From a virus, in IMG/VR virus record IMGVR_UViG_3300005617_000028, positions 1 to 64,000 of that record: DNA of 64,000 bases. The stretch is one strand, 5' to 3'. The notes under the pieces were generated by a model that searched no databases, was not told the origin of the DNA, and saw only the letters and a program-made list of their open reading frames with translations. A program made the position numbers and the translations under genes. Positions 1,286 to 42,431 of this stretch are shown piece after piece. Numbering within the stretch: the stretch's first letter is position 1; each line of letters starts with the position of its first letter.

Positions 1286-1846
1286 GTGACCAGCAAGATC
1301 GTAGAAGGCTTTTCACTCTCACACGCAGCGATCCTGGACGGCACGACCGGCGCCGAAGCAGTTGATGGCGACATCTACGGCGTTCGTACGGGAACTATCG
1401 CTGCCGACACCGGCAACTATGACAACACCGGCGACGACGCCGTGCTCAGCTCGTGGTTCTGGTTCAACTTCGCCACCGTCACGGTCCAGGCCGGCTACGT
1501 ACCGTTCGCCACCATCGCGCTGCTCGCGGGCGCGACGGTCACGTCTTCGGGTACATCCCCGAACGACTACTTCTCCCTGCCGCTGTGGGAGGAAACCTCG
1601 CTCAACCAGCCGCCGCGGCCGATGCTCATCCGGGTTCCCGCCCGGGACAAGGACGGCGCGGTACGCACGCTGGACTTCGTCCTGTACCGGGTTCAGTTCG
1701 GGCCACTGAACTTCGACGGCCCGGCCTACAAGTCGGGGCTGCTGCTCAACTACTCCGGCCGCGCTGTCATGAGCGACAAGGACGAGACCGGTACCGCGAT
1801 TCCCAAGCGCGCCATCGGTCGGCTCCTCAACCGGCCGGCCGTCTAA
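1286..1846 (+). CDS. major tail (tube) protein
   Basis: 186 aa, beta-rich acidic composition; position before chaperones and tape measure. Confidence 0.7.
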   Translation: MTSKIVEGFSLSHAAILDGTTGAEAVDGDIYGVRTGTIAADTGNYDNTGDDAVLSSWFWFNFATVTVQAGYVPFATIALLAGATVTSSGTSPNDYFSLPLWEETSLNQPPRPMLIRVPARDKDGAVRTLDFVLYRVQFGPLNFDGPAYKSGLLLNYSGRAVMSDKDETGTAIPKRAIGRLLNRPAV

Positions 1847-1881
1847 CCCATCCGCACACCAAGGAGCCGTGGAGGCCACAG

Positions 1882-2565
1882 GTGGCAGAACTCGACGCAC
1901 TCGACCCCGTTCCCGAACAGTGCAAACTGACTTCGGGAACGGTTGTCGTATTACAGGATCTCCGCGCCCGGCAGTTCTTCAAGCTGCTGCGCATCGTCAC
2001 CCACGGCGCGATGCCGCTGATCCAGGACGGCTCACTGCTGCGCCTGGACGGCGACATGGACGTCAACGAGTTCGGCGGCCGGCTACTCAGCCTGATGCTG
2101 CTGTCCATCCCTGACGCCGAAGAAGAGACCATCGCCTTCGTGCAGAGCATGTGCGAGCCGTATGGGCTGATCACCGGCCGCAAACTCAACAAGCAGGATT
2201 CTGAACGAAACACCGTTCTGTGGGACACGCTGCAGGCCGAGCTGGAAAACCCCGAACTGGATGACCTGGTCACCATCGTGGAGGCCATCATCCGACGGGA
2301 GGCCGATGACCTTCAGGCGTTGGGAAAACGCCTCATCGCGATGTTCAAGCTCGCGGAGAAGACCGGCCAGGTACCGTCCCAGCTCCAGATCCCGCAGACA
2401 CTGCCCTCCTCGGCGGATTCTCCCGATCGTTCGACCTCCTCAGCCACGAGTACGGATGGACCGACGACGTCCTCCGGGACCTCACCATCCGACGACTCCG
2501 CCAATGCGTCGCCGCCGTCCGGGAGCGACGCTTCTACACCGGCTGGGACCGCGACCAGTGGCTGA
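1882..2565 (+). CDS. tail assembly chaperone (short, gpG-like)
   Basis: GGAGG RBS then GTG at 1882; between tail tube and TMP; low-complexity S/T tail after slippery site. Confidence 0.75.
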   Translation: MAELDALDPVPEQCKLTSGTVVVLQDLRARQFFKLLRIVTHGAMPLIQDGSLLRLDGDMDVNEFGGRLLSLMLLSIPDAEEETIAFVQSMCEPYGLITGRKLNKQDSERNTVLWDTLQAELENPELDDLVTIVEAIIRREADDLQALGKRLIAMFKLAEKTGQVPSQLQIPQTLPSSADSPDRSTSSATSTDGPTTSSGTSPSDDSANASPPSGSDASTPAGTATSG

Positions 2566-2816
2566 TCTGGCAGACACGCACCCTGTGCACCTTCATCGCC
2601 GCCGCCGTCCCGCTGGAGGAAGGCCAGGACAACCCGCTGCTGGAGCAGGCCCAGAAGATCGGCGAGCCAGCCGACGCCGATGATCCGGTAGCCGGTACCG
2701 GCCAGCCCGCCCAGCCCGACCGACCTGACCGGTCCGCCCAGAGCCAACCGCGGGTCGGCTCATACGAGGACTTCCTGTCCAGCTTCGGCGCTCCGGCGCG
2801 GTGGGCCGGCCGGTGA
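1882..2816 (+). CDS. tail assembly chaperone, -1 frameshift product (gpGT-like)
   Basis: In-frame G GGA AAA at 2322-2328; -1 frame open to TGA 2814-2816, encoding FDLLSHEYGWTDDVLRDLTIRRL... Confidence 0.8.
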
Positions 2817-2836
2817 CCGTGGGGAGGTGAGCCGGC

Positions 2837-5800
2837 GTGCAGGCCGACGGTGAACACCGCGTCGTCTACCGGGCGGTCGCTGACTTCGCCGACCTCGATC
2901 GGGCCGTGGCCCGGTCCATGGCCCAAATGGCCGCGTTGCGGGCAGCCAGCGCACAGGTCGGTCCGGCCCAGCGCGGTAGTACCGGCAATCCGGTGGCCGA
3001 TATGGCCAAGCAGCTGCAACAGTCCCGCGACATCACCGCGGCGACCAACCAGCACCGCACCGCTGCCGACGCTGACGCCACCGCCACCCAGAAGCAGGGC
3101 GCGCAGTACCAGCAGCTGGCCGTGTTCAGCCACCAGTACGCCGTCCAGATGTCGGCCGCCGAAGCGAAACGGCGCGAAACGGTTGGCAGCCTGCACGAGG
3201 CGACCACTGCCGAAAATGACCTGACCGCTGCGGTTGAGAAGGGCACCAAGGCCCGCACCCGCAGCGTCGCCGTTGAATCGGAGGCGACGAAGGCCCGCCG
3301 TGACGCCGCTGCCCGGCAGGCCCTGGAGCTGGCGGCGAGCCTGAACGAGGTACGCCGCGCCGGCCAGGTCGAGCGGGACGAGACCAAGAGGACCCAGGCG
3401 CAGAAGGTCGCCGACACGATCCACGCCAATGTTGCCATCCGCGAGAGTGACAAGACGATCACCGCGGATCTGCTCAACGAAATGACCCTGGGCAACGCGC
3501 AGACCCGGGAAAACAGCAAAACGGCGGCACAGAAAAGGATCGACACGGCCAAGGCGGACCGTGAAGAGGACAAGACCCGCACCCAGGTCGATACGAATCG
3601 GCAGAATTTTGCGCAGCGTGCGCTTCTCAATATCCGTGCATTGGCTCAAGGTGACTTCCGTACCCAGGGTGCGAAGAGCACAGCCGGAGCCGCTGAGGCA
3701 CGGCGCGTGTCCGCAGTCATCGGAACGGTCCGGGCCGAGGAGCAGCTGCACACCGCGACCGCCAACACCGAACGAGCGATCTCGTCGGCCGGCGCTGCAG
3801 AGGCGCTGCGCGGTGCGCGGGTGGCCAAGAATGCCCGCGACGCGGAAGGCTTCGCCGCCAAGGAGGCACGAGCCGGCGAACAGCACATCCTGCGGCTGGC
3901 CCGAATGGGGCAGGCGCTGGACAAGAACCGTGGCAACATCAAAGGCTTCTCCGACGAGTTCCTGCTGGCGTTCCGGGGAATCCGTACCGGCTTCCGGGCC
4001 GGCGCCCATGAGGCCAGCAACGCGGCGACAGCGTTCGGGCGGGTACGCGCCCGGGTGAAGGCCATCAAGGCCGAATTCGCCTCCGGTGGCGGCAGCGGCG
4101 GCGTCGGTGGCCGGTTCTTCAACGAGCTGGGCGACATGGCCAACCGGGTCGCCACCCGGTTCTCCGGCGCCTTCCGGGCGATCCTCAGCGGCCGCGGTGT
4201 GATCATCCTGGCGGTCGCGGCGGCCGGGCCGCTGATCGCCGCGCTCGGGTCGCTGGCCGCCGGCGCGATCGGCCTCGCTGACACCCTGGTCAGCCTGTCC
4301 GGGGTGGTGTTCGCCCTACCCGCCCTGTTCGGTGCGGCCGCCACCTCCATCATCGCGATGATCATCGCGATCAAGCCGCTCAAAGACGCGCTGACCGCCT
4401 ACGGCGCCACCCAGAAGGCGGCCCGCCACACCAGTCAGCAGTTCATCGACAGCCAGCGCGAGGAGCGCCGCGCCCAGCTGGCCCTCAACGAGGCCAGAAA
4501 ACAGGCCACCCGCGACCTGGAAGACCTGCGCCGCCAGTTGGAACGCACCGGCCTCAACGAGGATGAGGCCCTGCTGCGGGTCAAGCAGGCCAAGGCGGAC
4601 TACGAGCGGGTGTGGGCGGACCCGAACGCCACGGCGCTGGACCGTGAGGAGGTCGTCAACCGCGTCCGGGAGGCCGAATTCGACTACGGCGACACCCTGA
4701 CCAAGAACAAGCGGGTTGTGGAGGACTACAACACCGCCGTCAAGCAGGGTGTGAATGGCAACCCGGCTGTCGTCGACGCCAACGAGCGCGTCACCAAGTC
4801 GCAGAAGGAGATGGCCGCCGGCGGCAGTGAGGCCTACACCGCCCAGCAGAAACTTCAGGCGGAGCTGGCCAAGCTGGGGCCCAACACGCGCCTGGTCGCC
4901 CTGGCGTTGATGGGGCAGGCCGACGGTTGGACCGCGGTGAAGAAGGCGATCGGTGACCGGTTCTTCGGCCCGCTGGTGGGCCAGCTGGGCCATCTGCCCG
5001 GCCTGCTGATCCTCATCAAGACACTGCTCGGTGAGGCGGCCGGGGCGGTCGGTGATGTGCTGGCCAAGGGCATCGCCATGATCAGCCGGCCGGAGTGGAA
5101 GGCGGACCTGACCGCCTTCGCCGAAGATAACGGCTACATCATCCGCACCCTCGGCGACGCGGTGCTGTACATCGTCGACGCGATCCGCAACACCACCATG
5201 GCCGCCGCCCCGTTCACCAAGTGGCTCGTCAACGCCCTGACGTCGGTGGCCAAGGCCTTCGACGACTGGTCCGCCTCCGCCCGTGGCTCCGGCTCCATCG
5301 CCAAATTCCTCGACGGCACCAAGCACAGCCTGCACGACCTGTGGGAGATCCTGAAAAACCTGTTCGGCCTGTTCGGCTCCCTGTTCGGCGCCTCCCAGGA
5401 CTTCGCCACCAGCATGCTCGACGGGATCGTCACCGTCACCGACAAGTGGGCGCACTGGGGCAAGACGCAGGAACGTCAGGGCAGCTCATTCAAGAACTGG
5501 CTGGCCAACACCAAACCCCTGCTGCGCGACCTGGCCGGCTTCGCCGGCGCGCTGGCTACCGCCATCGGTGCCATCGCCGCCGACCCGAAAAACATCGAAG
5601 AGGCAAAGAAGATCTTCGAGGCGTTGGCCACCAAGGTGCTGCCCGCCCTGGTCGGCATCTTCCATGACCTTTCCGACAGCCACGCCATCAGCGACATCGT
5701 CACCGCCCTGGGCAACCTGCTCGAAGCGGTGAAAAACTTCCTCGACAACGGTGGGGCGTTGCCGATCACCATCTTCATCGGCTCGTTCCTGGGGCTGCTC

Positions 5801-8452
5801 ACCCTGCTCGCCAGTGCGCTGAACAACCCGGTGCTGGCCAACGGTTTCACCATCTTCCTGACGTTCCTGGCCGCCCTGGCCGCCGCCTCGGCGATCGGCA
5901 AGTTCCTCGGCCTGTTCAAGCTCTACGACCTGTTCCGGGTGTTCAAGCCGGCCACCAGCGGTGTCGGCCGCGCCGCCGACGCGATCCTGGGCCGGGGCGC
6001 CTCCGCTGGCAGTACCGGTGCGGCCGCGGGCGCTGCCGCGCTCGACGGTGCGGCGGTAGCCCTCGATGGCGCGGCCGCCGTCTGGCGGGGTGTGGCGGCT
6101 GCCTTCGACGCCACCATGACGGCTGTCTCGGTCCGGCTCAACGCCGCCGGGGCCCTGCTGCTGCGCGCCGGTGAGGCCTTGATCGGGGCCGCGGAGATCA
6201 GTGCGGGGAAGGGTGTTATCCCCTCACTGTCCGGCGGGCGTACCAGGCTGACACCGGCCAACACCCGCGGCGCGGTCGACCTGGCCGGCCCAGCCGTCGG
6301 TGGGGCCGCAGAAGAGGGCGCCGCGGTAGCGCTGCGCGGGTCGGCGCTGGCCCTCGACGGCGCCGCTGAGCAGCTGATCATCGCCGCCGGCGTGCTCCGG
6401 GAAGCCGGCCTGCTTGGCGGGATCCCGCTGGGTGGCAAGGCTGGCAAGGCGGGTAAGGGGGCACTTGCCGCCGGCGAGCGGGAAGGGGTCGCCCTCGCCG
6501 AAGGCGCCGGGGCGGCGAAGGCGGGCAGTTGGCTGAGCCGACTGTTCGGGCGCCGGGGTGCGACGGTGGCCGCCGGCGCCGTCGCAGCGGGAGGTGTCGC
6601 TGAGGCGGCCGCACCACGGCTGCTGCCGCGACTGCTGGGCGGTGCCGTTCGTGGGCTCACCGGCCCGGTGTCCCTGGCTGGCCTGGCCGTCGGCCTGCTC
6701 GCCGACTCCGGGCTACTGGGCAAGCCGAAGTCGGCTGGCGCCACAACCGCCCGCGCGGGCGGCGCGATCCTGACCGGGGCCGGCATCGGCGCCGGCATCG
6801 GCTCTGTCGTGCCCGGTGTAGGTACTGCCATCGGTGCCGGCGTCGGTGCGGCCGCCGGCGCGGTGTACTCGTTCGTCAAAGACCCGCAGCTGCGCAAAGA
6901 CACCGGCGACTTTTTCGCTATGCTCGGAGGATTCTTCAAGTACCTGGGCACCAAGGCCTGGGGTTGGTTCGACAATCACGTGATTCACCCGGTGGTCCAC
7001 TTCTTCGTGGGTGTCGGCGGATTCTTCAAGGACATCGGCGTCAAAACGTGGCAGTGGTTCGACACTCACGTCGTACATCCCGTCGTCCATTTCTTTGTGG
7101 CCATCGGCGACTTTTTCAAGAAGGTCGGCGTCAAAGTCTGGCAGTGGTTCGACAACCACGTCATCCACCCGATTGTCAGCTTCTTTGTCAGCATCGGAAC
7201 CGCGGTCTTTGATTTCGCCAGGAACGTCGGAAAGTTCATCTACGACCACTTCGCCCGACCCATCCTCGCCATCTTTATCGGCATTGGAGTTGTGCTGTGG
7301 CACTTGATTGTCGGAGTCGGAAAATGGATCTACGACCACGTAGTCAAGCCGTTTGTGCATTTCCTCGTCCAGATCGCCGTCTGGGTCGCTGTGCACGCAA
7401 AAAAGGTGCCCGGGTGGATCCTTGATCACGTTGTGCGACCGGTGGTTAGTTTCTTCGTCACTGTGGGCCTGTGGATCGGCCGACACGCGAAGAGCATCGG
7501 AGTCTGGATCTATCAGCACGTCATCCGGCCGGTGGTCAGCTTCTTCACGACCATCGGACTGTGGATAGGCCGCCAGGCGAAGAACATCGGTGTCTGGATA
7601 TACCAGCACGTTATTGTGCCTATAGTGAATTTCTTCGTCATGATCGGCCGGTGGATAGGCGGTCAGGCGAAAAAGATCGGCGTCTGGATGTACGACCACA
7701 TCATCGTGCCGATCGTCGACTTTTTCGTTGGCATCGGTAAGTGGATCGGCACCCAGGTCGGGAAGATCGCTGGATGGCTTGGCGATCACATCGTCACCCC
7801 GGTCGTCGACTTCTTTGTAGGAATCGGAAAGGGAATCGCGGATCTGGCTGTTCAGGCGGCCACCTGGTTCAAAGAACACGTCTACCAACCGGTGCTGAAC
7901 TTCTTCTCCGGGCTCGCCGGATTCTTCGTCAACCTGCCGAGCATGATCGAAAAGAAGCTGGAAAACGTACCGATCATTGGCCCGGCGATCAAGAAGGCGT
8001 TCAACGAGCTGCCCGGTGAGGACCATTCGGCACCCGCCGCCACCACGGCGGCGCAAGAACAACACAAAGGCCATGCCTCTGGCGGCCTGATCGCTGGGAC
8101 CGCGGACGGGCGTACCGACACCAAGCACATCCTGGCCACCATCGGCGAGTACGTGATCCGTAAGCGGGTGGTGGACCAGCCCGGCGCCAAGCGGCTGCTC
8201 AACGACCTCAACGAGGGCCGTCTGGATCCGGCCAGCCTCTACGCCGGCTTCGGCGCGGCCGCCCAGGGCGCCAACCAACCGACCAGCCGGCGGATGTCCG
8301 CCACTGTCGGAACCACCACCGTCACCAACACCAGTACCCGCAACGCCGGCATGTCCCTGGGGGACATCACCATCAACAACCCGGTCCGGGAACCGTCGGG
8401 CCGGTCGCTGCGGCGCACGCTGCAGACGCTGACGTATATGACCGAGCACTAG
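2837..8452 (+). CDS. tape measure protein
   Basis: 1871 aa, Ala/Gly-rich, coiled-coil and hydrophobic segments, W/F periodic repeats, C-terminal HASGG...GEYVI motif. Confidence 0.92.
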   Translation: MQADGEHRVVYRAVADFADLDRAVARSMAQMAALRAASAQVGPAQRGSTGNPVADMAKQLQQSRDITAATNQHRTAADADATATQKQGAQYQQLAVFSHQYAVQMSAAEAKRRETVGSLHEATTAENDLTAAVEKGTKARTRSVAVESEATKARRDAAARQALELAASLNEVRRAGQVERDETKRTQAQKVADTIHANVAIRESDKTITADLLNEMTLGNAQTRENSKTAAQKRIDTAKADREEDKTRTQVDTNRQNFAQRALLNIRALAQGDFRTQGAKSTAGAAEARRVSAVIGTVRAEEQLHTATANTERAISSAGAAEALRGARVAKNARDAEGFAAKEARAGEQHILRLARMGQALDKNRGNIKGFSDEFLLAFRGIRTGFRAGAHEASNAATAFGRVRARVKAIKAEFASGGGSGGVGGRFFNELGDMANRVATRFSGAFRAILSGRGVIILAVAAAGPLIAALGSLAAGAIGLADTLVSLSGVVFALPALFGAAATSIIAMIIAIKPLKDALTAYGATQKAARHTSQQFIDSQREERRAQLALNEARKQATRDLEDLRRQLERTGLNEDEALLRVKQAKADYERVWADPNATALDREEVVNRVREAEFDYGDTLTKNKRVVEDYNTAVKQGVNGNPAVVDANERVTKSQKEMAAGGSEAYTAQQKLQAELAKLGPNTRLVALALMGQADGWTAVKKAIGDRFFGPLVGQLGHLPGLLILIKTLLGEAAGAVGDVLAKGIAMISRPEWKADLTAFAEDNGYIIRTLGDAVLYIVDAIRNTTMAAAPFTKWLVNALTSVAKAFDDWSASARGSGSIAKFLDGTKHSLHDLWEILKNLFGLFGSLFGASQDFATSMLDGIVTVTDKWAHWGKTQERQGSSFKNWLANTKPLLRDLAGFAGALATAIGAIAADPKNIEEAKKIFEALATKVLPALVGIFHDLSDSHAISDIVTALGNLLEAVKNFLDNGGALPITIFIGSFLGLLTLLASALNNPVLANGFTIFLTFLAALAAASAIGKFLGLFKLYDLFRVFKPATSGVGRAADAILGRGASAGSTGAAAGAAALDGAAVALDGAAAVWRGVAAAFDATMTAVSVRLNAAGALLLRAGEALIGAAEISAGKGVIPSLSGGRTRLTPANTRGAVDLAGPAVGGAAEEGAAVALRGSALALDGAAEQLIIAAGVLREAGLLGGIPLGGKAGKAGKGALAAGEREGVALAEGAGAAKAGSWLSRLFGRRGATVAAGAVAAGGVAEAAAPRLLPRLLGGAVRGLTGPVSLAGLAVGLLADSGLLGKPKSAGATTARAGGAILTGAGIGAGIGSVVPGVGTAIGAGVGAAAGAVYSFVKDPQLRKDTGDFFAMLGGFFKYLGTKAWGWFDNHVIHPVVHFFVGVGGFFKDIGVKTWQWFDTHVVHPVVHFFVAIGDFFKKVGVKVWQWFDNHVIHPIVSFFVSIGTAVFDFARNVGKFIYDHFARPILAIFIGIGVVLWHLIVGVGKWIYDHVVKPFVHFLVQIAVWVAVHAKKVPGWILDHVVRPVVSFFVTVGLWIGRHAKSIGVWIYQHVIRPVVSFFTTIGLWIGRQAKNIGVWIYQHVIVPIVNFFVMIGRWIGGQAKKIGVWMYDHIIVPIVDFFVGIGKWIGTQVGKIAGWLGDHIVTPVVDFFVGIGKGIADLAVQAATWFKEHVYQPVLNFFSGLAGFFVNLPSMIEKKLENVPIIGPAIKKAFNELPGEDHSAPAATTAAQEQHKGHASGGLIAGTADGRTDTKHILATIGEYVIRKRVVDQPGAKRLLNDLNEGRLDPASLYAGFGAAAQGANQPTSRRMSATVGTTTVTNTSTRNAGMSLGDITINNPVREPSGRSLRRTLQTLTYMTEH
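6959..7948 (+). repeat. about 11 degenerate 90-bp (30-aa) tandem repeats in TMP
   Basis: Units start 6959, 7049, 7139...; consensus xxWxxxHxxxPxxxFFxxIG. Confidence 0.85.
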
Positions 8453-33451: not shown

Positions 33452-34003
33452 ACCCGCAGGTCAAGGCACCTTTCGAGAATATCAAGCCCACAACCGAGGG
33501 TGCGTTGAACACCGGGAGGCCGCTGCCTGATAGCGCGCCCGGCAGGATTCGAACCTGCGACCAATGGATTAGAAGTCCATTGCTCTATCCGCTGAGCTAC
33601 GGGCGCCTGAGAGGACAGTAGGTCATCGATATACTAACCAACCCGCCCCTATCGGGCGAACAGCTAACTCTACCTAGGCCGAACGGATGTCTTGTCCCCT
33701 CGCCTGTCCCCAACCTTGAGCCATCGCTGCCCGTCAGTGTTAAATAGGCTCTGACCTGCGGGTTTGTGGCCAGTTTGGACATGACTGAAGGATTAGAAGT
33801 CGTGTTAAGGTAACGCAGTGTGACCGGACAAAATGGGGCAAGACGTTACGAACTCCCATTGATTAACGTGCGTGCGCTACGTAGGGTTACGGCGTTTTAC
33901 CCCCTTTTCCACCGACTGTCTCCGCCTGCCCCCTCGACAGGGGACGGTGAACGTGGGTATGGTCCACCCCCGTTCCACCGAGCAGGTGTGTGAGGCGTAA
34001 CCC
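33452..34003. other. putative attachment (att) region
   Basis: GGATTAGAAGTC at 33566-33577 (in tRNA) and 33790-33801; inverted 12-mers at 33452-33463 / 33752-33763; adjacent to integrase. Confidence 0.6.
33534..33606 (-). tRNA. tRNA-Arg(UCU)
   Basis: GCGCCCG/CGGGCGC acceptor stem, TAGCTCAGCGGATAGAGC D-arm, ATGGA-CTTCTAA-TCCAT anticodon arm, GGTTCGAATCC T-arm; no encoded CCA. Confidence 0.95.
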
Positions 34004-35284
34004 ATGGCATCCATCGAAAAGCGCGGTTCTTCTTTCCGGGTCGTCTGGCGGCATAACAGCGCCAAGCAGTCCACGACATGGCCCAATGAAAGACTTGCGT
34101 GGCAGGCCCGGCGGCTGGTTGAGGGCCGTGAGCACCGCGTCACGCCCGATGAGGTCTACGAGATCGTCGGCGGTGTTGAGATTGCTCCGCGCCGGCAGTC
34201 GGTTCTCACCTTTCGGACGTGGAGCGAGATGTGGATGGCCGCTCTGGTACGGCCCGGGGATTCCACCCGAGCCAACTACCAGGCGCAACTCGACCGGCAG
34301 ATACTGCCCGCCATCGGCGAGCTTGCCTTGGTAGACGTTGACGCCATCGCTGTGGCGACGCTGGTCAACAGCCTCAAGGTCAAATTTGCCAACACCACCG
34401 TCACCCGCTACTACGCCGTGCTGTTCCAATGCCTGAATTTCGCGGTCAAGATGGGCAAGATACCCGTCAACCCGTGCTACCAGATCAACTTCAGGCGGGA
34501 CGAACCCGACCAGCTCGACACCAGCGATGAAGATGACGACCACGTCTACCTGACGCTCCAGGAGTACGAACAGATCCTGTCCAACATCCACCCGGCCGAT
34601 CGACCCCTCGTGGAATTCCTGGCCGGGACCGGTTGCCGGATCTCTGAGGCCACCGCGGTAACCGTCTCGGCAATTCGCCTCCACGGCATCGGGCCGCAGG
34701 ATCCAGCTCCCGTCGTGCGTATCCAACAGACTCACAAAGGCGACGGGTCGGGCGGCCGCCGGGTACTGGGTATCCCCAAGGGACGCCGCCGCCGGTGGGT
34801 ATCACTCGGCCAACGTGTCCTTGAGGCCATCGCGCCCGTGCACACTGATCGGAACCCGACAGAATTCCTGTTCACCGCCACAAGGGGCGGCCCCATCAAC
34901 GCCGACAACTGGCGGAATCGGGTCTGGGACAAGGCAGTCGGCGAAGCCCGTCGGTGTCCGCAACACCCTCCCGCACTGCCGCCCCAACCAGTGCGTGGCC
35001 CTCGCCGCCAATGGACCCCCGATGAGGTTTCCACCTGCAACTGCCCCGGCGTCTTGTCACGCCGTCCAACACCCCACGACCTCAGACACTCACACGCCTG
35101 CTGGTTGCTGTCTGAGGGCCACGACCTGCTGTTCGTGTCACGCCGGCTTGGGCATGCCAGCGTCAGCCTGACCGAGCGGGTCTACGGTGGTATCACCCGT
35201 CAGCGTGATAATGAGGCAGCCACGCTGATAGACCGCGCAATGGGAGCTGGGACGCGGCAACGGCGCCTCCTCAGCTCGGTATAG
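34004..35284 (+). CDS. int: tyrosine integrase
   Basis: TGCRISEA, HDLRH, LGH, VY catalytic set; MASIEKRG arm-binding N-terminus. Confidence 0.95.
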   Translation: MASIEKRGSSFRVVWRHNSAKQSTTWPNERLAWQARRLVEGREHRVTPDEVYEIVGGVEIAPRRQSVLTFRTWSEMWMAALVRPGDSTRANYQAQLDRQILPAIGELALVDVDAIAVATLVNSLKVKFANTTVTRYYAVLFQCLNFAVKMGKIPVNPCYQINFRRDEPDQLDTSDEDDDHVYLTLQEYEQILSNIHPADRPLVEFLAGTGCRISEATAVTVSAIRLHGIGPQDPAPVVRIQQTHKGDGSGGRRVLGIPKGRRRRWVSLGQRVLEAIAPVHTDRNPTEFLFTATRGGPINADNWRNRVWDKAVGEARRCPQHPPALPPQPVRGPRRQWTPDEVSTCNCPGVLSRRPTPHDLRHSHACWLLSEGHDLLFVSRRLGHASVSLTERVYGGITRQRDNEAATLIDRAMGAGTRQRRLLSSV

Positions 35285-35326: not shown

Positions 35327-35581
35327 GTGGAAATGCCCAAGCTCTACACCCTGGCCGAGGTCGCGCAGAACACCGGGCTGTCCCTGCGGGCACTCGCCGA
35401 CGGCGCCCGCGCAGGCAAGTTCGCCCACGTCCACCAGGGCGGGCACCGCTACATGACCATCGAGCAGGTCCACCAGCTAATCCAGGTATCCACAGTGACA
35501 CCGGACCCCATCCCCGACGACCTGGCGCCGCTGCGCCGGCGGTTGATGCAACGGAGCTTGCGCAACCAGGCCGGGGGATAA
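35327..35581 (+). CDS. excisionase-like HTH protein
   Basis: LYTLAEVAQNTGLS; adjacent to integrase. Confidence 0.65.
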   Translation: MEMPKLYTLAEVAQNTGLSLRALADGARAGKFAHVHQGGHRYMTIEQVHQLIQVSTVTPDPIPDDLAPLRRRLMQRSLRNQAGG

Positions 35582-37554: not shown

Positions 37555-37626
37555 CGCTGACGCTCCTTGACAGTTGATGTATCAATCCCCTGATGCCAAC
37601 TACCGGCGCGACGGGCCCTGTTGCGT

Positions 37627-38163
37627 TCAGGGGGCCAATGGGCGGAGCCGGCGGATGTAGGACGGCTGCCAGCTGATTCCGATGACCGCGCCCTCGGCGT
37701 TGACCGCCGTGTCGTACTGGGACAGCCACATCAGCGAGTACGGCTCAGCCGGCTTGCCGGCCGCGCTAGCGGAGTCCGCAGACGGTACCCACCCGCCGCA
37801 GTCGCAGCCGGGCTTGTCGCAGGACAGCACGCTCACGTCGAACGCCGTGCTCCGGTAGTGGCTCATCTGGCCCGATGCCATCGGGCAGGCCGCCGCGGAG
37901 TACCGGGCGCACTCCGGGTGCATGGCGGGCTCACGGCTCCAGCCCGCCTCAAGCTCGCTGGGCGTCACCAGCGCCACGCACGGCTGCTCCAGGCGCTGAC
38001 CGTCGATCTGGCAGCGCTGGTCGACCACACAGGCGTTTCGCCGGCTGGTGTGGACGTGGCCGAGGACATGGCGGCCGTCGCCGGAGGCCACCGAGATGTA
38101 CGGCACCACCAGGCCGCCGCTCAGTGGCCGGCCGAGCAGGCGGGCGGGAATGTCCGGCATCAT
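37627..38163 (-). CDS. conserved-type actinophage hypothetical protein
   Basis: GLVVPYI..CQIDG..EPAMHPECARYSAAACP. Confidence 0.6.
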   Translation of the reverse strand: MMPDIPARLLGRPLSGGLVVPYISVASGDGRHVLGHVHTSRRNACVVDQRCQIDGQRLEQPCVALVTPSELEAGWSREPAMHPECARYSAAACPMASGQMSHYRSTAFDVSVLSCDKPGCDCGGWVPSADSASAAGKPAEPYSLMWLSQYDTAVNAEGAVIGISWQPSYIRRLRPLAP

Positions 38164-38239
38164 CCAGGTATACCCGATCGGGTGAACCTGCACGTCAAAG
38201 GCGCGCGGAGCCGGTCTGAGCGAAAAAACGGAGGCCGGG

Positions 38240-38780
38240 CAGGTAGTTGCTGGTAGTGACGCGACAAGCAGGTCGCACACTCCACTGAGGACGCTGAACC
38301 GTGGACCCATGACCGTACGGCGCTGGCATCCGACAACTGCCCCGGCGGAACGCCGGTAATCAAACCCAAGGCCATCCGGTCCTGGACCCTCAGAAGGTCA
38401 CCTTTACCGGACACCCGAGCAACGGCGCAGTCGTGTAATGGCGAGCCCGGGGCGACACAGGTGGAAGAGACCTGTGGGCTGGAGACGAAAACGAACCGTC
38501 TCCAGTTCTTGACGCCGTTGCTGATCCCGGCCTCGCGGGCTGTGGTGTAACGGCCACAGCAGTCAGGTGAAGCAGCCTGACTGTGCCCGGTGTGACACGG
38601 CCTAAACGCGCCGAGTCAGCACTCTCTCCACCAAGCTCTATGGCATAGCCATGCCCAAGATCGAACCGGGGGGGGGTGTTCTCCAACCACTCAGCTCCCA
38701 GCGGCCAAGCCGAGGCAAGTCAAAAGCACAAGACACTCCACGGTTGGAGCGAACTAATGGTGAACCATGCCCAAAACCGC
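38240..38780 (+). ncRNA. putative large structured RNA (~540 nt)
   Basis: More than 10 helices, A-rich loops, possible pseudoknots; between divergent genes (see findings). Confidence 0.55.
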
Positions 38781-38788
38781 GGCGGGCT

Positions 38789-39253
38789 GTGATGGCTCTC
38801 ATCTCCGCTCGTGAGTTCCGGCAGCAGGTGGCCGCCTGGGCCATCAAGGGCCAACGCAAGTTCGAGGTTACCTGCCGGCAACGGTGTGGCCACGACCTCG
38901 TCGTCCGGCTCCGGGTCAACGGTGGCCTGAGCGAACTGGAGCAGGCGGAAAGCCAGCGGTGCGCTCAGTGTTCGGAGCCGGATCCGTTGGGACGCGAGGT
39001 GGTCTATGGGCGGGCCTACGAGGAGGCCAACGCCCGCGCCGCGGAAGCCGGCTTCCCCGCGCTGACCGGTACGCGCAAACAGGTTGGCTGGGCGAACGTG
39101 CTGCGGCTGCGGGCGGTGCGGCTTCATGGCCTTGACGCCATCAAAGACAGCGTGATGGACCGGAAGGAAGCCACCTGGTGGATCGCCCACCGCGACCGCC
39201 TCCGGGATCTGGTTCCGCCGGCGTGGGCGACCGAGTCAGCGGGTCAGCGGTGA
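38789..39253 (+). CDS. hypothetical protein
   Basis: CGH..CxxC and PALTGTRKQVGWA..WWI motifs seen in mobile-element proteins. Confidence 0.6.
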   Translation: MMALISAREFRQQVAAWAIKGQRKFEVTCRQRCGHDLVVRLRVNGGLSELEQAESQRCAQCSEPDPLGREVVYGRAYEEANARAAEAGFPALTGTRKQVGWANVLRLRAVRLHGLDAIKDSVMDRKEATWWIAHRDRLRDLVPPAWATESAGQR

Positions 39254-39476
39254 AAGCGGCGGCTGTGCGCACAGCGGTGGGCCGGGTCGGTACCGCGATG
39301 GTCACCAGGCACGCGGACCGCCCAGCGGTGAAGCAGACGGCGGATCGGCTGTGCCCGGTGTGTTTCCAGTTCGCTGGTCTGCCGTGTCGGCGCATTGTGT
39401 CCGCGCCCGGCGCTCGAAAGCTCCGGTTCCGCGGGCAGCTGCTGGAGGTTCACCCTGAGCGGTTGGGAGGTCAGCG

Positions 39477-39716
39477 GTGATCACGCATCCGGCCGCGCCC
39501 GATGTCCGGCCCCACCGGAGCGCGTCGGCGCCCGGTCAGGAGATCACCATCCACACGGACGGCAGGGTCCTGGTGTGGCGCCAGATCGGCTGGCACGGCG
39601 GCTCCGGCGCGTTCTACGCCCTCGGCGAGGACCCGTCGCGGTTTGAGCGGGGCTCGTTCCGGCCGCTGTGGATTCTGGCGGACAACGAGCTGGACGAGTC
39701 TGACGTGTTCGGATGA
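39477..39716 (+). CDS. hypothetical protein
   Basis: Overlap-coupled ORF. Confidence 0.45.
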   Translation: MITHPAAPDVRPHRSASAPGQEITIHTDGRVLVWRQIGWHGGSGAFYALGEDPSRFERGSFRPLWILADNELDESDVFG

Positions 39717-39955
39717 AGATCAGGGGTGTGGAGATCAACGTGACCGTGAAACTGCCCAAGCCGGATCTGGCGTTTGTCGACCGGTACGCCGCCGCCCGCG
39801 GGCTGACCCGCTCGACGGCGGTGCAACACGCGGTCGCGCAGCTCCGCACCGTCGAGCTGGCCGGCGAATACGAGACAGCGTTCACCGAGTGGCGAGATTC
39901 GGGTGAGGCGGCGGCGTGGGATGCCGTGGTGGCGGACGGGCTGGCCGGCTCATGA
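39713..39955 (+). CDS. mazE: MazE-like ribbon-helix-helix antitoxin (MazE9-type)
   Basis: RSTAVQHAV, EYETAFTEW..SGEAAAWD..ADGL. Confidence 0.85.
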   Translation: MKIRGVEINVTVKLPKPDLAFVDRYAAARGLTRSTAVQHAVAQLRTVELAGEYETAFTEWRDSGEAAAWDAVVADGLAGS

Positions 39956-40302
39956 TGGCCCGAGGAACGGTCTGGCTGGCCGCGCTGCCGGCGGGCGCCG
40001 ACGGCGAACAGAGCCAGATGCGGTCCGTGGTGGTGGTCAGCAACGAGGCGGCCAACGGCACAGCGCAGCGGCTGGGCCGCGGTGCCGTGAGCGTGGTTCC
40101 GCTCAGCCCGGACGTGGACCACGTGATGTCCTTTCATGTGCTCCTGGACGCCGGGACGGTCGGGCTGCCGTACGCCACCAAGGCGCAGGCGGAGCAGGTC
40201 CGCACCGTCGAGGTGAGCCGGTTGCTGCGGCGGCTGGGCGCATTGACGCCGGCGGCCCGGCTGCAGCTGGACGCGGCCCTGCGGCTGCACCTGGGCCTGT
40301 AG
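39952..40302 (+). CDS. mazF: MazF/PemK toxin (MazF9-type)
   Basis: RGTVW, VVVSN..AN, VVP, KAQAEQVR, LDAALRLHL. Confidence 0.88.
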   Translation: MMARGTVWLAALPAGADGEQSQMRSVVVVSNEAANGTAQRLGRGAVSVVPLSPDVDHVMSFHVLLDAGTVGLPYATKAQAEQVRTVEVSRLLRRLGALTPAARLQLDAALRLHLGL

Positions 40303-41639: not shown

Positions 41640-42431
41640 GTGGACCTCGCACCCTACGACGTGATCCTCGTCAGCAGCTCCGGCGGCAAGGACTCGCAGG
41701 CGATGCTCACCCATGTCGTCCACCTGGCCGACCAGCAGGGCATAGAGCGCAGCCGCATCGTCGTCGTGCACGCCGACCTCGGCCGGGTCGAGTGGGCCGG
41801 CACGGTCGAACTGGTACGGGTGCAGGCGGCCTGCTACGGCCTGCGGGTGGAGGTGGTGCGGCGAAGCGAGGACCTGATCGACCAGATCCGCACCAGGCAC
41901 AAGACCCTGCGCGCCAAGGGAGACACCACTACGCCGGCTTGGCCGTCCTCGGCCGCCCGGTACTGCACGAGCGACCAGAAGACTGGCCAGGTCGCCAAGC
42001 TGATGACCCGCATGGCCACCGCGTACCGCGCCAGCGGCGGGCGGGGCCCGATCCGTATTCTGAGCTGTCTTGGCTTCCGCGCGCAGGAGTCGGCCGCCCG
42101 AGCCAAGCGACCCGCGCTCGGCGTCGACCCGCAGACCAACGGGCGTCGGCAGGTGACACGATGGCTGCCCATCTTCGACTGGTCTGTGGAGCAGGTGTGG
42201 GCCACGATCCACCGGTCCGGTCTGCCGTACCACCCCGCCTATGACGCGGGCATGCCTCGGTTGTCGTGTTGCTTCTGTGTGCTGGCCGGCCGGCGTGACC
42301 TGGTCCTGGCGGCCCGGCTCAACCCCGAGCTGGCGCGTGAGTATCTGGCCTTGGAGGAAGAGGTCGGGCACACCTTCAGACTCGATCTGAGCATGGCCAC
42401 GATCGTCGCGGACGCGCTGGTCGCCCTATGA
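41640..42431 (+). CDS. PAPS-reductase family (PP-loop) protein
   Basis: SSSGGKDS, RYCT..K, GFRAQESAAR, PIFDWS, HPAY..GMPRLSCCFC. Confidence 0.88.
   Translation: MDLAPYDVILVSSSGGKDSQAMLTHVVHLADQQGIERSRIVVVHADLGRVEWAGTVELVRVQAACYGLRVEVVRRSEDLIDQIRTRHKTLRAKGDTTTPAWPSSAARYCTSDQKTGQVAKLMTRMATAYRASGGRGPIRILSCLGFRAQESAARAKRPALGVDPQTNGRRQVTRWLPIFDWSVEQVWATIHRSGLPYHPAYDAGMPRLSCCFCVLAGRRDLVLAARLNPELAREYLALEEEVGHTFRLDLSMATIVADALVAL

Follow-up and report, generated by a model that had tools for sequence, protein, structure and literature searches.

What occupies the gap between two divergent phage genes in which a preliminary description had placed a structured non-coding RNA of about 540 nt? The gap belongs to a 129,139-bp IMG/VR virus record (G000; CheckV 96% complete, ~68% GC), of which the first 64 kb were analyzed and are called the window here; coordinates refer to the window unless another record is named. 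The DnaB of this phage shares 50% identity with the DnaB of Microbacterium phage Magritte and 70% with the one encoded by another IMG/VR contig (G001). Landmarks of the region are listed below.

33533-33606: tRNA-Arg(TCT), the sole ARAGORN call within the window
34004-35284: tyrosine integrase, 3' of the tRNA-Arg
35327-35581: excisionase-like HTH gene, 3' of the tRNA-Arg
Likely start at 38163, - strand: gene bordering the gap
38789/38792-39253, + strand: orphan, Zn-finger-like ORF bordering the gap

That this is a true gap between divergent genes was borne out by third-position GC, in which no codon phase stands out, compared with 0.85-0.95 in genes; on the side of the - strand gene, the value drops from ~0.9 to background near 38165-38200. 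At the other border, an 11-codon ORF (38758-38793; ATG at 38758 after GGAG) overlaps with its TGA the GTG/ATG start of the ORF at 38789/38792-39253, an arrangement that could reflect translational coupling or chance. Farther along, 1 kb 3' of the RNA element described here, a ribbon-helix-helix ORF (39713-39955; weak RHH_1 match) overlaps a MazF/PemK-like toxin ORF (39916-40302; E 8e-16), together a type II toxin-antitoxin pair (39713-40302), and the early region also encodes a phosphoadenosine phosphosulfate reductase-family ORF (41640-42431; Pfam E 5e-17, phrog_424 E 1e-34).

Extent and distribution of the conserved element

The related phage contig G001 (locus L014) matches the window in two collinear segments, 38341-38398 and 38415-38454, at 79-80% identity, and its copy lies inside a 760-bp gap. 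An 18-mer common to both phages served as the query for exact scans of three collections, which returned one stretch in IMG/VR, 97 in metagenome contigs and 40 in genome contigs. When the flanks of these matches were read and an nhmmer profile was run over the collected loci, only L014, L023, L033, L078 and L096 proved to be full-length homologs. L023, L078 and L096 are 99.7-99.9% identical and represent one element, leaving four distinct copies: those of the window phage, of G001, of the L078 group and of L033. The remaining 18-mer matches were set aside by the same two approaches as chance rather than homology, and L021 and L094 have only the first ~30 nt in common with the element.

Further searches point to a rare element, with four copies among the scanned collections. 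By the 18-mer scan it is absent from all bacterial species representatives; blastn found no match to it in INPHARED phages or PLSDB plasmids, and three looser degenerate-pattern scans of IMG/VR gave no copy beyond G001. Flanking genes were followed as well. The element was not found at eight loci with relatives of the flanking - strand gene (33-51% identity). For the protein encoded upstream of the L096 copy, 36 relatives were found, the named ones from Micromonosporaceae; the protein is present in 25 of 301 genomes (a tally that includes the unpublished G467, G507 and G599, loci L178, L182 and L188) of a bacterial family picked by HemQ identity; nine unpublished genomes entered the HemQ ranking, and the choice rests on G369, G223 and G286. 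At 20 loci encoding relatives of this protein, the element was found neither by nhmmer nor, with filters off, by R1, a covariance model made from the window sequence alone with an RNAfold-based structure (best E 0.049, a short partial match). The protein itself occurs in none of the 401 genomes of a class-wide sample. A four-sequence model (R3) gave no match in 151 genomes in a shallow search that scored 24 candidates per genome. The 129-kb record and each locus examined hold a single copy. The stretch 37600-39300 recurs with zero differences in contigs of four rhizosphere metagenome DNA runs from four studies, one of them possibly the source sample, so there is no micro-variation to exploit.

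Comparison of the four copies defines the borders. Conservation begins sharply at hairpin P1 (38342) and extends on the 3' side through hairpin H10 (to 38679), after which a tail of weak similarity reaches ~38706; the four sequences are not alignable before P1 or past this tail. The conserved element is therefore 38342-~38706 on the + strand, ~365 nt, and the proposed size of ~540 nt (38240-38780) has to be reduced accordingly. The helices assigned to the 5' part (38240-38341; GCGAC/GTCGC and the partner of CTGAGG) and the 3' pair CTCCAACC/GGTTGGAG, past ~38706, have no counterpart in the three homologs and, falling outside the alignable region, are specific to the window. The features of the element are as follows.

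38342-38356, + strand: hairpin P1, CCGGCG-GAA-CGCCGG; with the following UAA, the 18-mer invariant in four of four copies
38357-38417, + strand: 5' domain, a conserved single-stranded stretch and tentative helix H2
38375-80 with 38406-11, + strand: H2 (tentative)
38387-38398, + strand: near-invariant 12-mer CCCUCRGAAGGU, encircled by H2
38418-38522, + strand: four-way junction
38418-27 with 38513-22, + strand: S2, closing helix of the junction
38430-34 with 38452-56, + strand: H3', with a conserved 17-nt loop (38435-51)
38457-62 with 38470-75, + strand: H5, with a 7-nt loop
38477-87 with 38497-507, + strand: H6, a variable hairpin
38508-12, + strand: junction strand CUYGA
38526-38583, + strand: three adjacent hairpins, H7-H9
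38526-29 with 38536-39, + strand: H7, no variation
38540-45 with 38554-59, + strand: H8, loop with GUAAYG (CUAAUG in L014)
38560-67 with 38576-83, + strand: H9
38593-38618, + strand: H9b, bulged hairpin UGAC-A-CGGC ... GCCG-A-GUCA
38619-38679 (38619-29 with 38668-79), + strand: H10, long hairpin, base 5' ...CUCC, 3' GGGG...
38680-38706, + strand: 3' tail AACCA...CCAG.GG, residual similarity common to L078 and L033, deleted in L014

The element is non-coding. GC by phase is flat across it (0.59-0.67, compared with 0.8-0.95 in genes), three of the four copies have stops in all six frames (in L033, frame -2 alone is open), and the copies differ by indels whose lengths are not divisible by three (1 nt, 2 nt and, in G001, a 26-nt insertion that RNAfold predicts to be a hairpin). 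A protein-coding gene was rejected on these grounds.

Helices, compensating changes and strand

When each copy was folded alone with RNAfold, the same junction domain emerged, with S2 enclosing H3', H5 and H6. The single-sequence model R1 aligned the other three copies end to end (E 2e-9 to 3e-11). On this alignment, which is fitted by Infernal to a structure taken from one row and so leans towards that structure, 94.5% of the 128 junction cells are standard pairs and both sides have changed, in at least one sequence of the alignment, in 20 of 34 pairs. When the 3' partners were slid by 1-3 columns, the same counts fell to 34-48% of cells and 2-5 pairs, and none of 500 shuffles reached any of five measures. 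The changes on both sides are spread over S2 (8/10 pairs, with four different sequences), H5 (4/6) and H6 (7/11), while H3' contributes one of five pairs (C-G to U-A). With only four distinct sequences, three of them fairly close, R-scape-grade statistics are impossible.

Over H7-H9 in the 3' domain, G001 and the window were aligned with a second model, R2, derived from L078. Across these three sequences, 92.2% of cells are paired, compared with 29-45% when slid, and both sides have changed in 4 of 17 pairs; a count from coordinates assigns two of the four pairs of H8 to this class. R2 did not recover L033 and placed the H10 of the window wrongly; a manual count from coordinates was therefore made for this hairpin and gave standard pairs in 42 of 42 cells, with both sides changed in 7 of 11 pairs. 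The window copy of H10 carries an extra inner hairpin (38641-53). The sequences that form H9 and H9b differ from copy to copy, with L033 as the exception for H9b, which is missing there, reduced in L078 and kept in the same layout with another inner helix (GACC/GGUC) in L014. P1, H7 and the inner pairs of H3' and H9 never vary and therefore carry no covariation evidence. In the 5' domain, all six pairs of H2 form in the window and in G001, two of them with changes on both sides; L078 and L033 form four of its six pairs in that register, and a shifted 5-bp register fits both. A small hairpin within the 12-mer region is not conserved (10/16 cells).

All helices of the preliminary description are present in the sequence, and most of them belong to the conserved element. 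The latter include the junction helices AGCAACGGCG/CGCCGTTGCT (38418-27/38513-22), CACAGGT/ACCTGTG and CTGGAGACG/CGTCTCCAG, together with the hairpins GCTGTGG/CCACAGC, CAGTCAGG/CCTGACTG and CCGGCG/CGCCGG; apart from the invariant CCGGCG helix, pairing is kept with changed sequence in the homologs. GGGGTGTT, which had been assigned to crossing pairs of the 3' part, is conserved, but as the 3' strand of hairpin H10, paired with 38619-29. The broader claim of a structured non-coding RNA is upheld, with pairs kept by compensating changes in four copies above the slid and shuffled controls.

MAFFT misaligned the hairpins, so that RNAalifold on its alignment reached only a poor consensus (covariation term -0.06); the 3' half of the junction was misaligned as well. 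Folding beats dinucleotide shuffles modestly, with z-scores of -3.35 (+ strand) and -2.55 (- strand) for 38240-38780 and of -3.37 and -2.24 for 38342-38706, although in a GC-rich genome a fold z-score by itself settles nothing. Mean pairwise identity is higher in columns predicted to be unpaired (0.75) than in paired ones (0.57), the pattern expected of a functional RNA.

The distribution of conserved unpaired nucleotides bears on a catalytic reading, in which the junction and internal-loop nucleotides would form the active site for self-cleavage or another reaction. The four-way junction is compact, with near-zero linkers between its helices, and the 17-nt H3' loop, CUYGA and the 12-mer are highly conserved although unpaired; large orphan RNAs of comparable complexity have often proved catalytic. 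As an alternative to H2, a pseudoknot between 38375-80 and the H3' loop is possible as well (21/24 standard cells, no change on both sides). For the pseudoknot that had been proposed originally, GAGCCCGGG/CCCGGCCTC, 26 of 36 cells are standard pairs and one pair has changed on both sides, but two columns are persistently mismatched. Changes on both sides affect at most one pair of either pseudoknot, Rfam offers no matching ribozyme family even at E 10, and there is no nameable cleavage-site signature, so that we consider a ribozyme improbable.

A 23-nt string resembling the H3' loop motif also recurs in a family of IMG/VR contigs of 61% GC (L152-L162), in an apparently conserved coding region; it was rejected as a homolog, the coding family being unrelated to the RNA.

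The pairs themselves are informative about the strand. Read on the + strand, the junction has 13 G-U cells against one A-C, and the 3' hairpins 11 against one, 24 against two in total; the window's H10 alone contains five G-U pairs, so that this helix forms on the + strand only. The G-U excess and the better + strand fold z-score indicate that the folded molecule is the + strand, most simply as RNA. The A-richness reported for this strand was confirmed (A > T, AT skew +0.16 over 38001-39000). A consensus scan found no sigma-70-like promoter and no + strand terminator, and comparison of the four copies found no conserved promoter motif upstream of P1.

These counts also weigh on the possibility that the element acts as DNA, either as a recombination or protein-binding site or as a MITE-like mobile repeat. 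Recombinases adjoin it in all four loci, and the flanks around its copies are otherwise unrelated, which would suit a mobile module. Yet G-U cells outnumbering A-C by 24 to 2 and compensating helices are unexpected for a duplex DNA site, each record carries a single copy, and no bracketing direct or inverted repeats of at least 10 nt were found. An interspersed repeat or MITE was rejected on the last two observations, and a DNA-level element of any kind appears very improbable.

Genomic setting and proposed role

The flanking genes of the four copies are unrelated, and no protein is common to all four contigs. The window copy lies between divergent orphan genes; that of G001 lies between convergent genes, the next one RNase H-like (RVT_3); the L078/L096 copy has a co-oriented resolvase downstream; and both neighbors of the L033 copy are antisense. 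A resolvase 64% identical to the one adjacent to the RNA in L096 is encoded in G000 as well (93527-94117), 55 kb from the RNA.

This variety of neighbors speaks to whether the element could be a cis-regulatory, riboswitch-like leader of the downstream gene at 38792-39253. In the window and in L078, the element is followed by a gene of the same orientation, and the short ORF with its GGAG overlaps the start of the downstream gene. The downstream genes, however, are unrelated among the copies (an orphan ORF, a resolvase, a convergent RNase H-like gene), and in L033 nothing is co-oriented on either side. The ORF at 38792-39253 has no relative among 5.8 billion proteins, in IMG/VR or in G001, even though G001 carries the RNA. 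With differing or antisense neighbors and an orphan ORF downstream, the element is most likely neither a leader nor a functional partner of that ORF; the link to the Zn-finger-like ORF that had been suggested is accordingly not supported. The leader reading is already largely refuted by the genomic contexts, and we regard it as hardly credible.

What the copies do share is an integrase gene 1.8-6 kb away. A tyrosine integrase ends 3.1 kb upstream of the element in the window, its homolog in G001 lies 2.9 kb from the element, a large serine recombinase in L096 lies 1.8 kb away, and a tyrosine integrase in L033 lies 6 kb away; because G000 and G001 are related phages, these amount to three to four semi-independent cases. 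In L096, the RNA copy is inside an apparent integrated island of ~4.5 kb (1300-5800). Besides the RNA, the island contains a resolvase-like gene (1345-2313), three small ORFs and a large serine recombinase (4529-5713); host msrB (789-1235) borders it on one side, and lytR-family, GNAT, hemQ-like and amine-oxidase genes (from 6329) follow on the other. Since this mobile element is only ~4.5 kb long, the RNA is one of its few parts. Its placement beside integrases, in one case within an island that has few other parts, suggests that the RNA may function in lysogeny.

Taken together, we favor as the probable explanation that a structured non-coding RNA of ~365 nt is encoded by a stand-alone gene at 38342-~38706 (+ strand). 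Comparison of the sequences has shown the same predicted architecture in four distinct mobile elements of soil actinobacteria, with stems changing compensatorily: a 5' hairpin is followed by a helix that presents a loop, by a four-way junction whose 17-nt internal loop is invariant and by four to five 3' hairpins. Such an RNA would be transcribed on its own, from its own promoter, and would act in trans, perhaps as a protein-binding or self-assembling scaffold or the core of an RNP, and possibly catalytically. It would belong to the lysogeny-proximal accessory region of temperate actinophages, a location from which it may be made from the prophage.

The most serious rival is a role at an origin of replication, whether as an origin-linked primer or pre-primer transcript resembling ColE1 RNA II or, as displaced DNA, in the form of a single-strand origin. 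The element is strand-specific, highly folded, autonomous and independent of neighbor genes, as this reading would have it; an RNase H-like gene adjoins the G001 copy, and the first reading of the sequence alone had named a candidate PolA-type replicase. Cumulative GC skew has a local minimum at ~36 kb in G000 and ~64 kb in G001, each 2-4 kb upstream of the RNA, which is suggestive only, and the + strand genes of the window differ in the sign of their skew on the two sides of the element (negative before ~31 kb, positive after 38.8 kb). The skew curve of G000 is nevertheless not a clean V. The window copy ends in a run of nine Gs, but the run is only four long in the other copies. Moreover, there are no iterons, no AT-rich stretch and no constant distance to replication genes; DnaB is ~20-25 kb off, and the L096 island has no recognizable replication gene. 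We therefore hold an origin or primer function to be unlikely.

A bolder proposal would be that the element represents, as its founding member, a new class of large RNAs of temperate actinophages and small integrative islands. It might be a new ribozyme or else a machine, RNA-only or RNP, that the prophage expresses, with the invariant loops (CCCUCRGAAGGU, the 17-nt H3' loop and CUYGA) as active or binding site and a role in lysogeny, superinfection or defense. We put this forward tentatively, as a possibility with the weight of expectation against it. Large, intricately folded non-coding RNAs of bacteria and phages are rare, and those studied are ribozymes, RNP cores or RNA-only cages; to our knowledge, few such RNAs come from actinobacterial mobile elements. 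The size of the element (~365 nt, with a core of ~105 nt) suits direct biochemistry and cryo-EM.

Comparison with known RNA families and systems

All 4227 families of Rfam 15 were scanned, a collection that includes GOLLD, ROOL, raiA, OLE, HEARO, group I and II introns, RNase P, tmRNA, 6S and the HDV-like, twister-sister and hammerhead ribozymes. At the gathering score, the sole match in the whole window is the tRNA (33534-33606). At E <= 10, window 38000-39000 has one match, outside the element (17 bits against 55), and at E <= 1, loci L011 and L078 have one unrelated CRISPR-DR match, also outside the element. For L033 (6200-7000, E <= 10), there is one faint miRNA-family match over H10, and its non-conserved tail has weak C/D-box sRNA matches only. 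No Rfam 15 family matches the conserved part of any of the four copies at E 1, in agreement with the earlier statement that the RNA belongs to no recognized family, and ARAGORN finds no tRNA or tmRNA in the element. In the L033 tail, 3' of the conserved RNA (6376-6449, - strand), two tandem hairpins have a UUCG loop and GAUGA and CUGA-like flanks; they are absent in the other copies, match archaeal C/D-box sRNA models weakly (~20 bits against 45, E ~0.01) and may be a k-turn-like motif or terminators. Titles and abstract openings of the literature describe no actinophage RNA like the element, which is weak evidence that none has been published.

Among smaller prophage RNAs, P4 CI RNA and P1/P7 c4 are encoded where temperate phages have their lysogeny or immunity functions; they are ~70-80 nt long and act by base-pairing. 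Our element, by contrast, is ~365 nt long and has a four-way junction. Of its three conserved single-stranded blocks, the two longer ones have no complementary target with up to two mismatches in the 129-kb genome, and the 12-mer has only sites with two mismatches. The ColE1 RNA II transcript is long, folded and strand-specific and works at the locus that encodes it, together with RNase H and Pol I; the likeness lies in the RNase H-like gene beside the G001 copy, but the element has no homology to RNA II, no mapped origin and no antisense RNA I counterpart that could be seen. The raiA motif, a structured orphan RNA that is likewise present in Actinobacteria, measures ~200 nt. No raiA model matches the element, and raiA RNA is chromosomal, near particular genes, whereas the element resides on integrase-bearing mobile elements.

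Also close in character are GOLLD and ROOL, large multi-helix RNAs of unknown function that are free-standing, borne by phages or prophages and not bound to one neighbor gene. Cryo-EM has shown that they form homo-oligomeric cages. Titles and abstract openings associate both with phage (bioRxiv 10.1101/2024.12.08.627333; PMC5737381). The element resembles them in being large, multi-helix, free-standing and phage-carried with varied neighbors, and differs in having no sequence or covariance-model similarity to them, in its size (~365 nt compared with roughly 500-800 nt for GOLLD and ROOL) and in having actinobacterial hosts instead of Firmicutes or rumen and lake taxa. The likeness to GOLLD and ROOL, or to a ribozyme, that had been drawn at the outset is an analogy only. 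Without homology to GOLLD or ROOL, the element is nonetheless, like them, one of the large orphan phage RNAs, and within that group it is an uncatalogued family.
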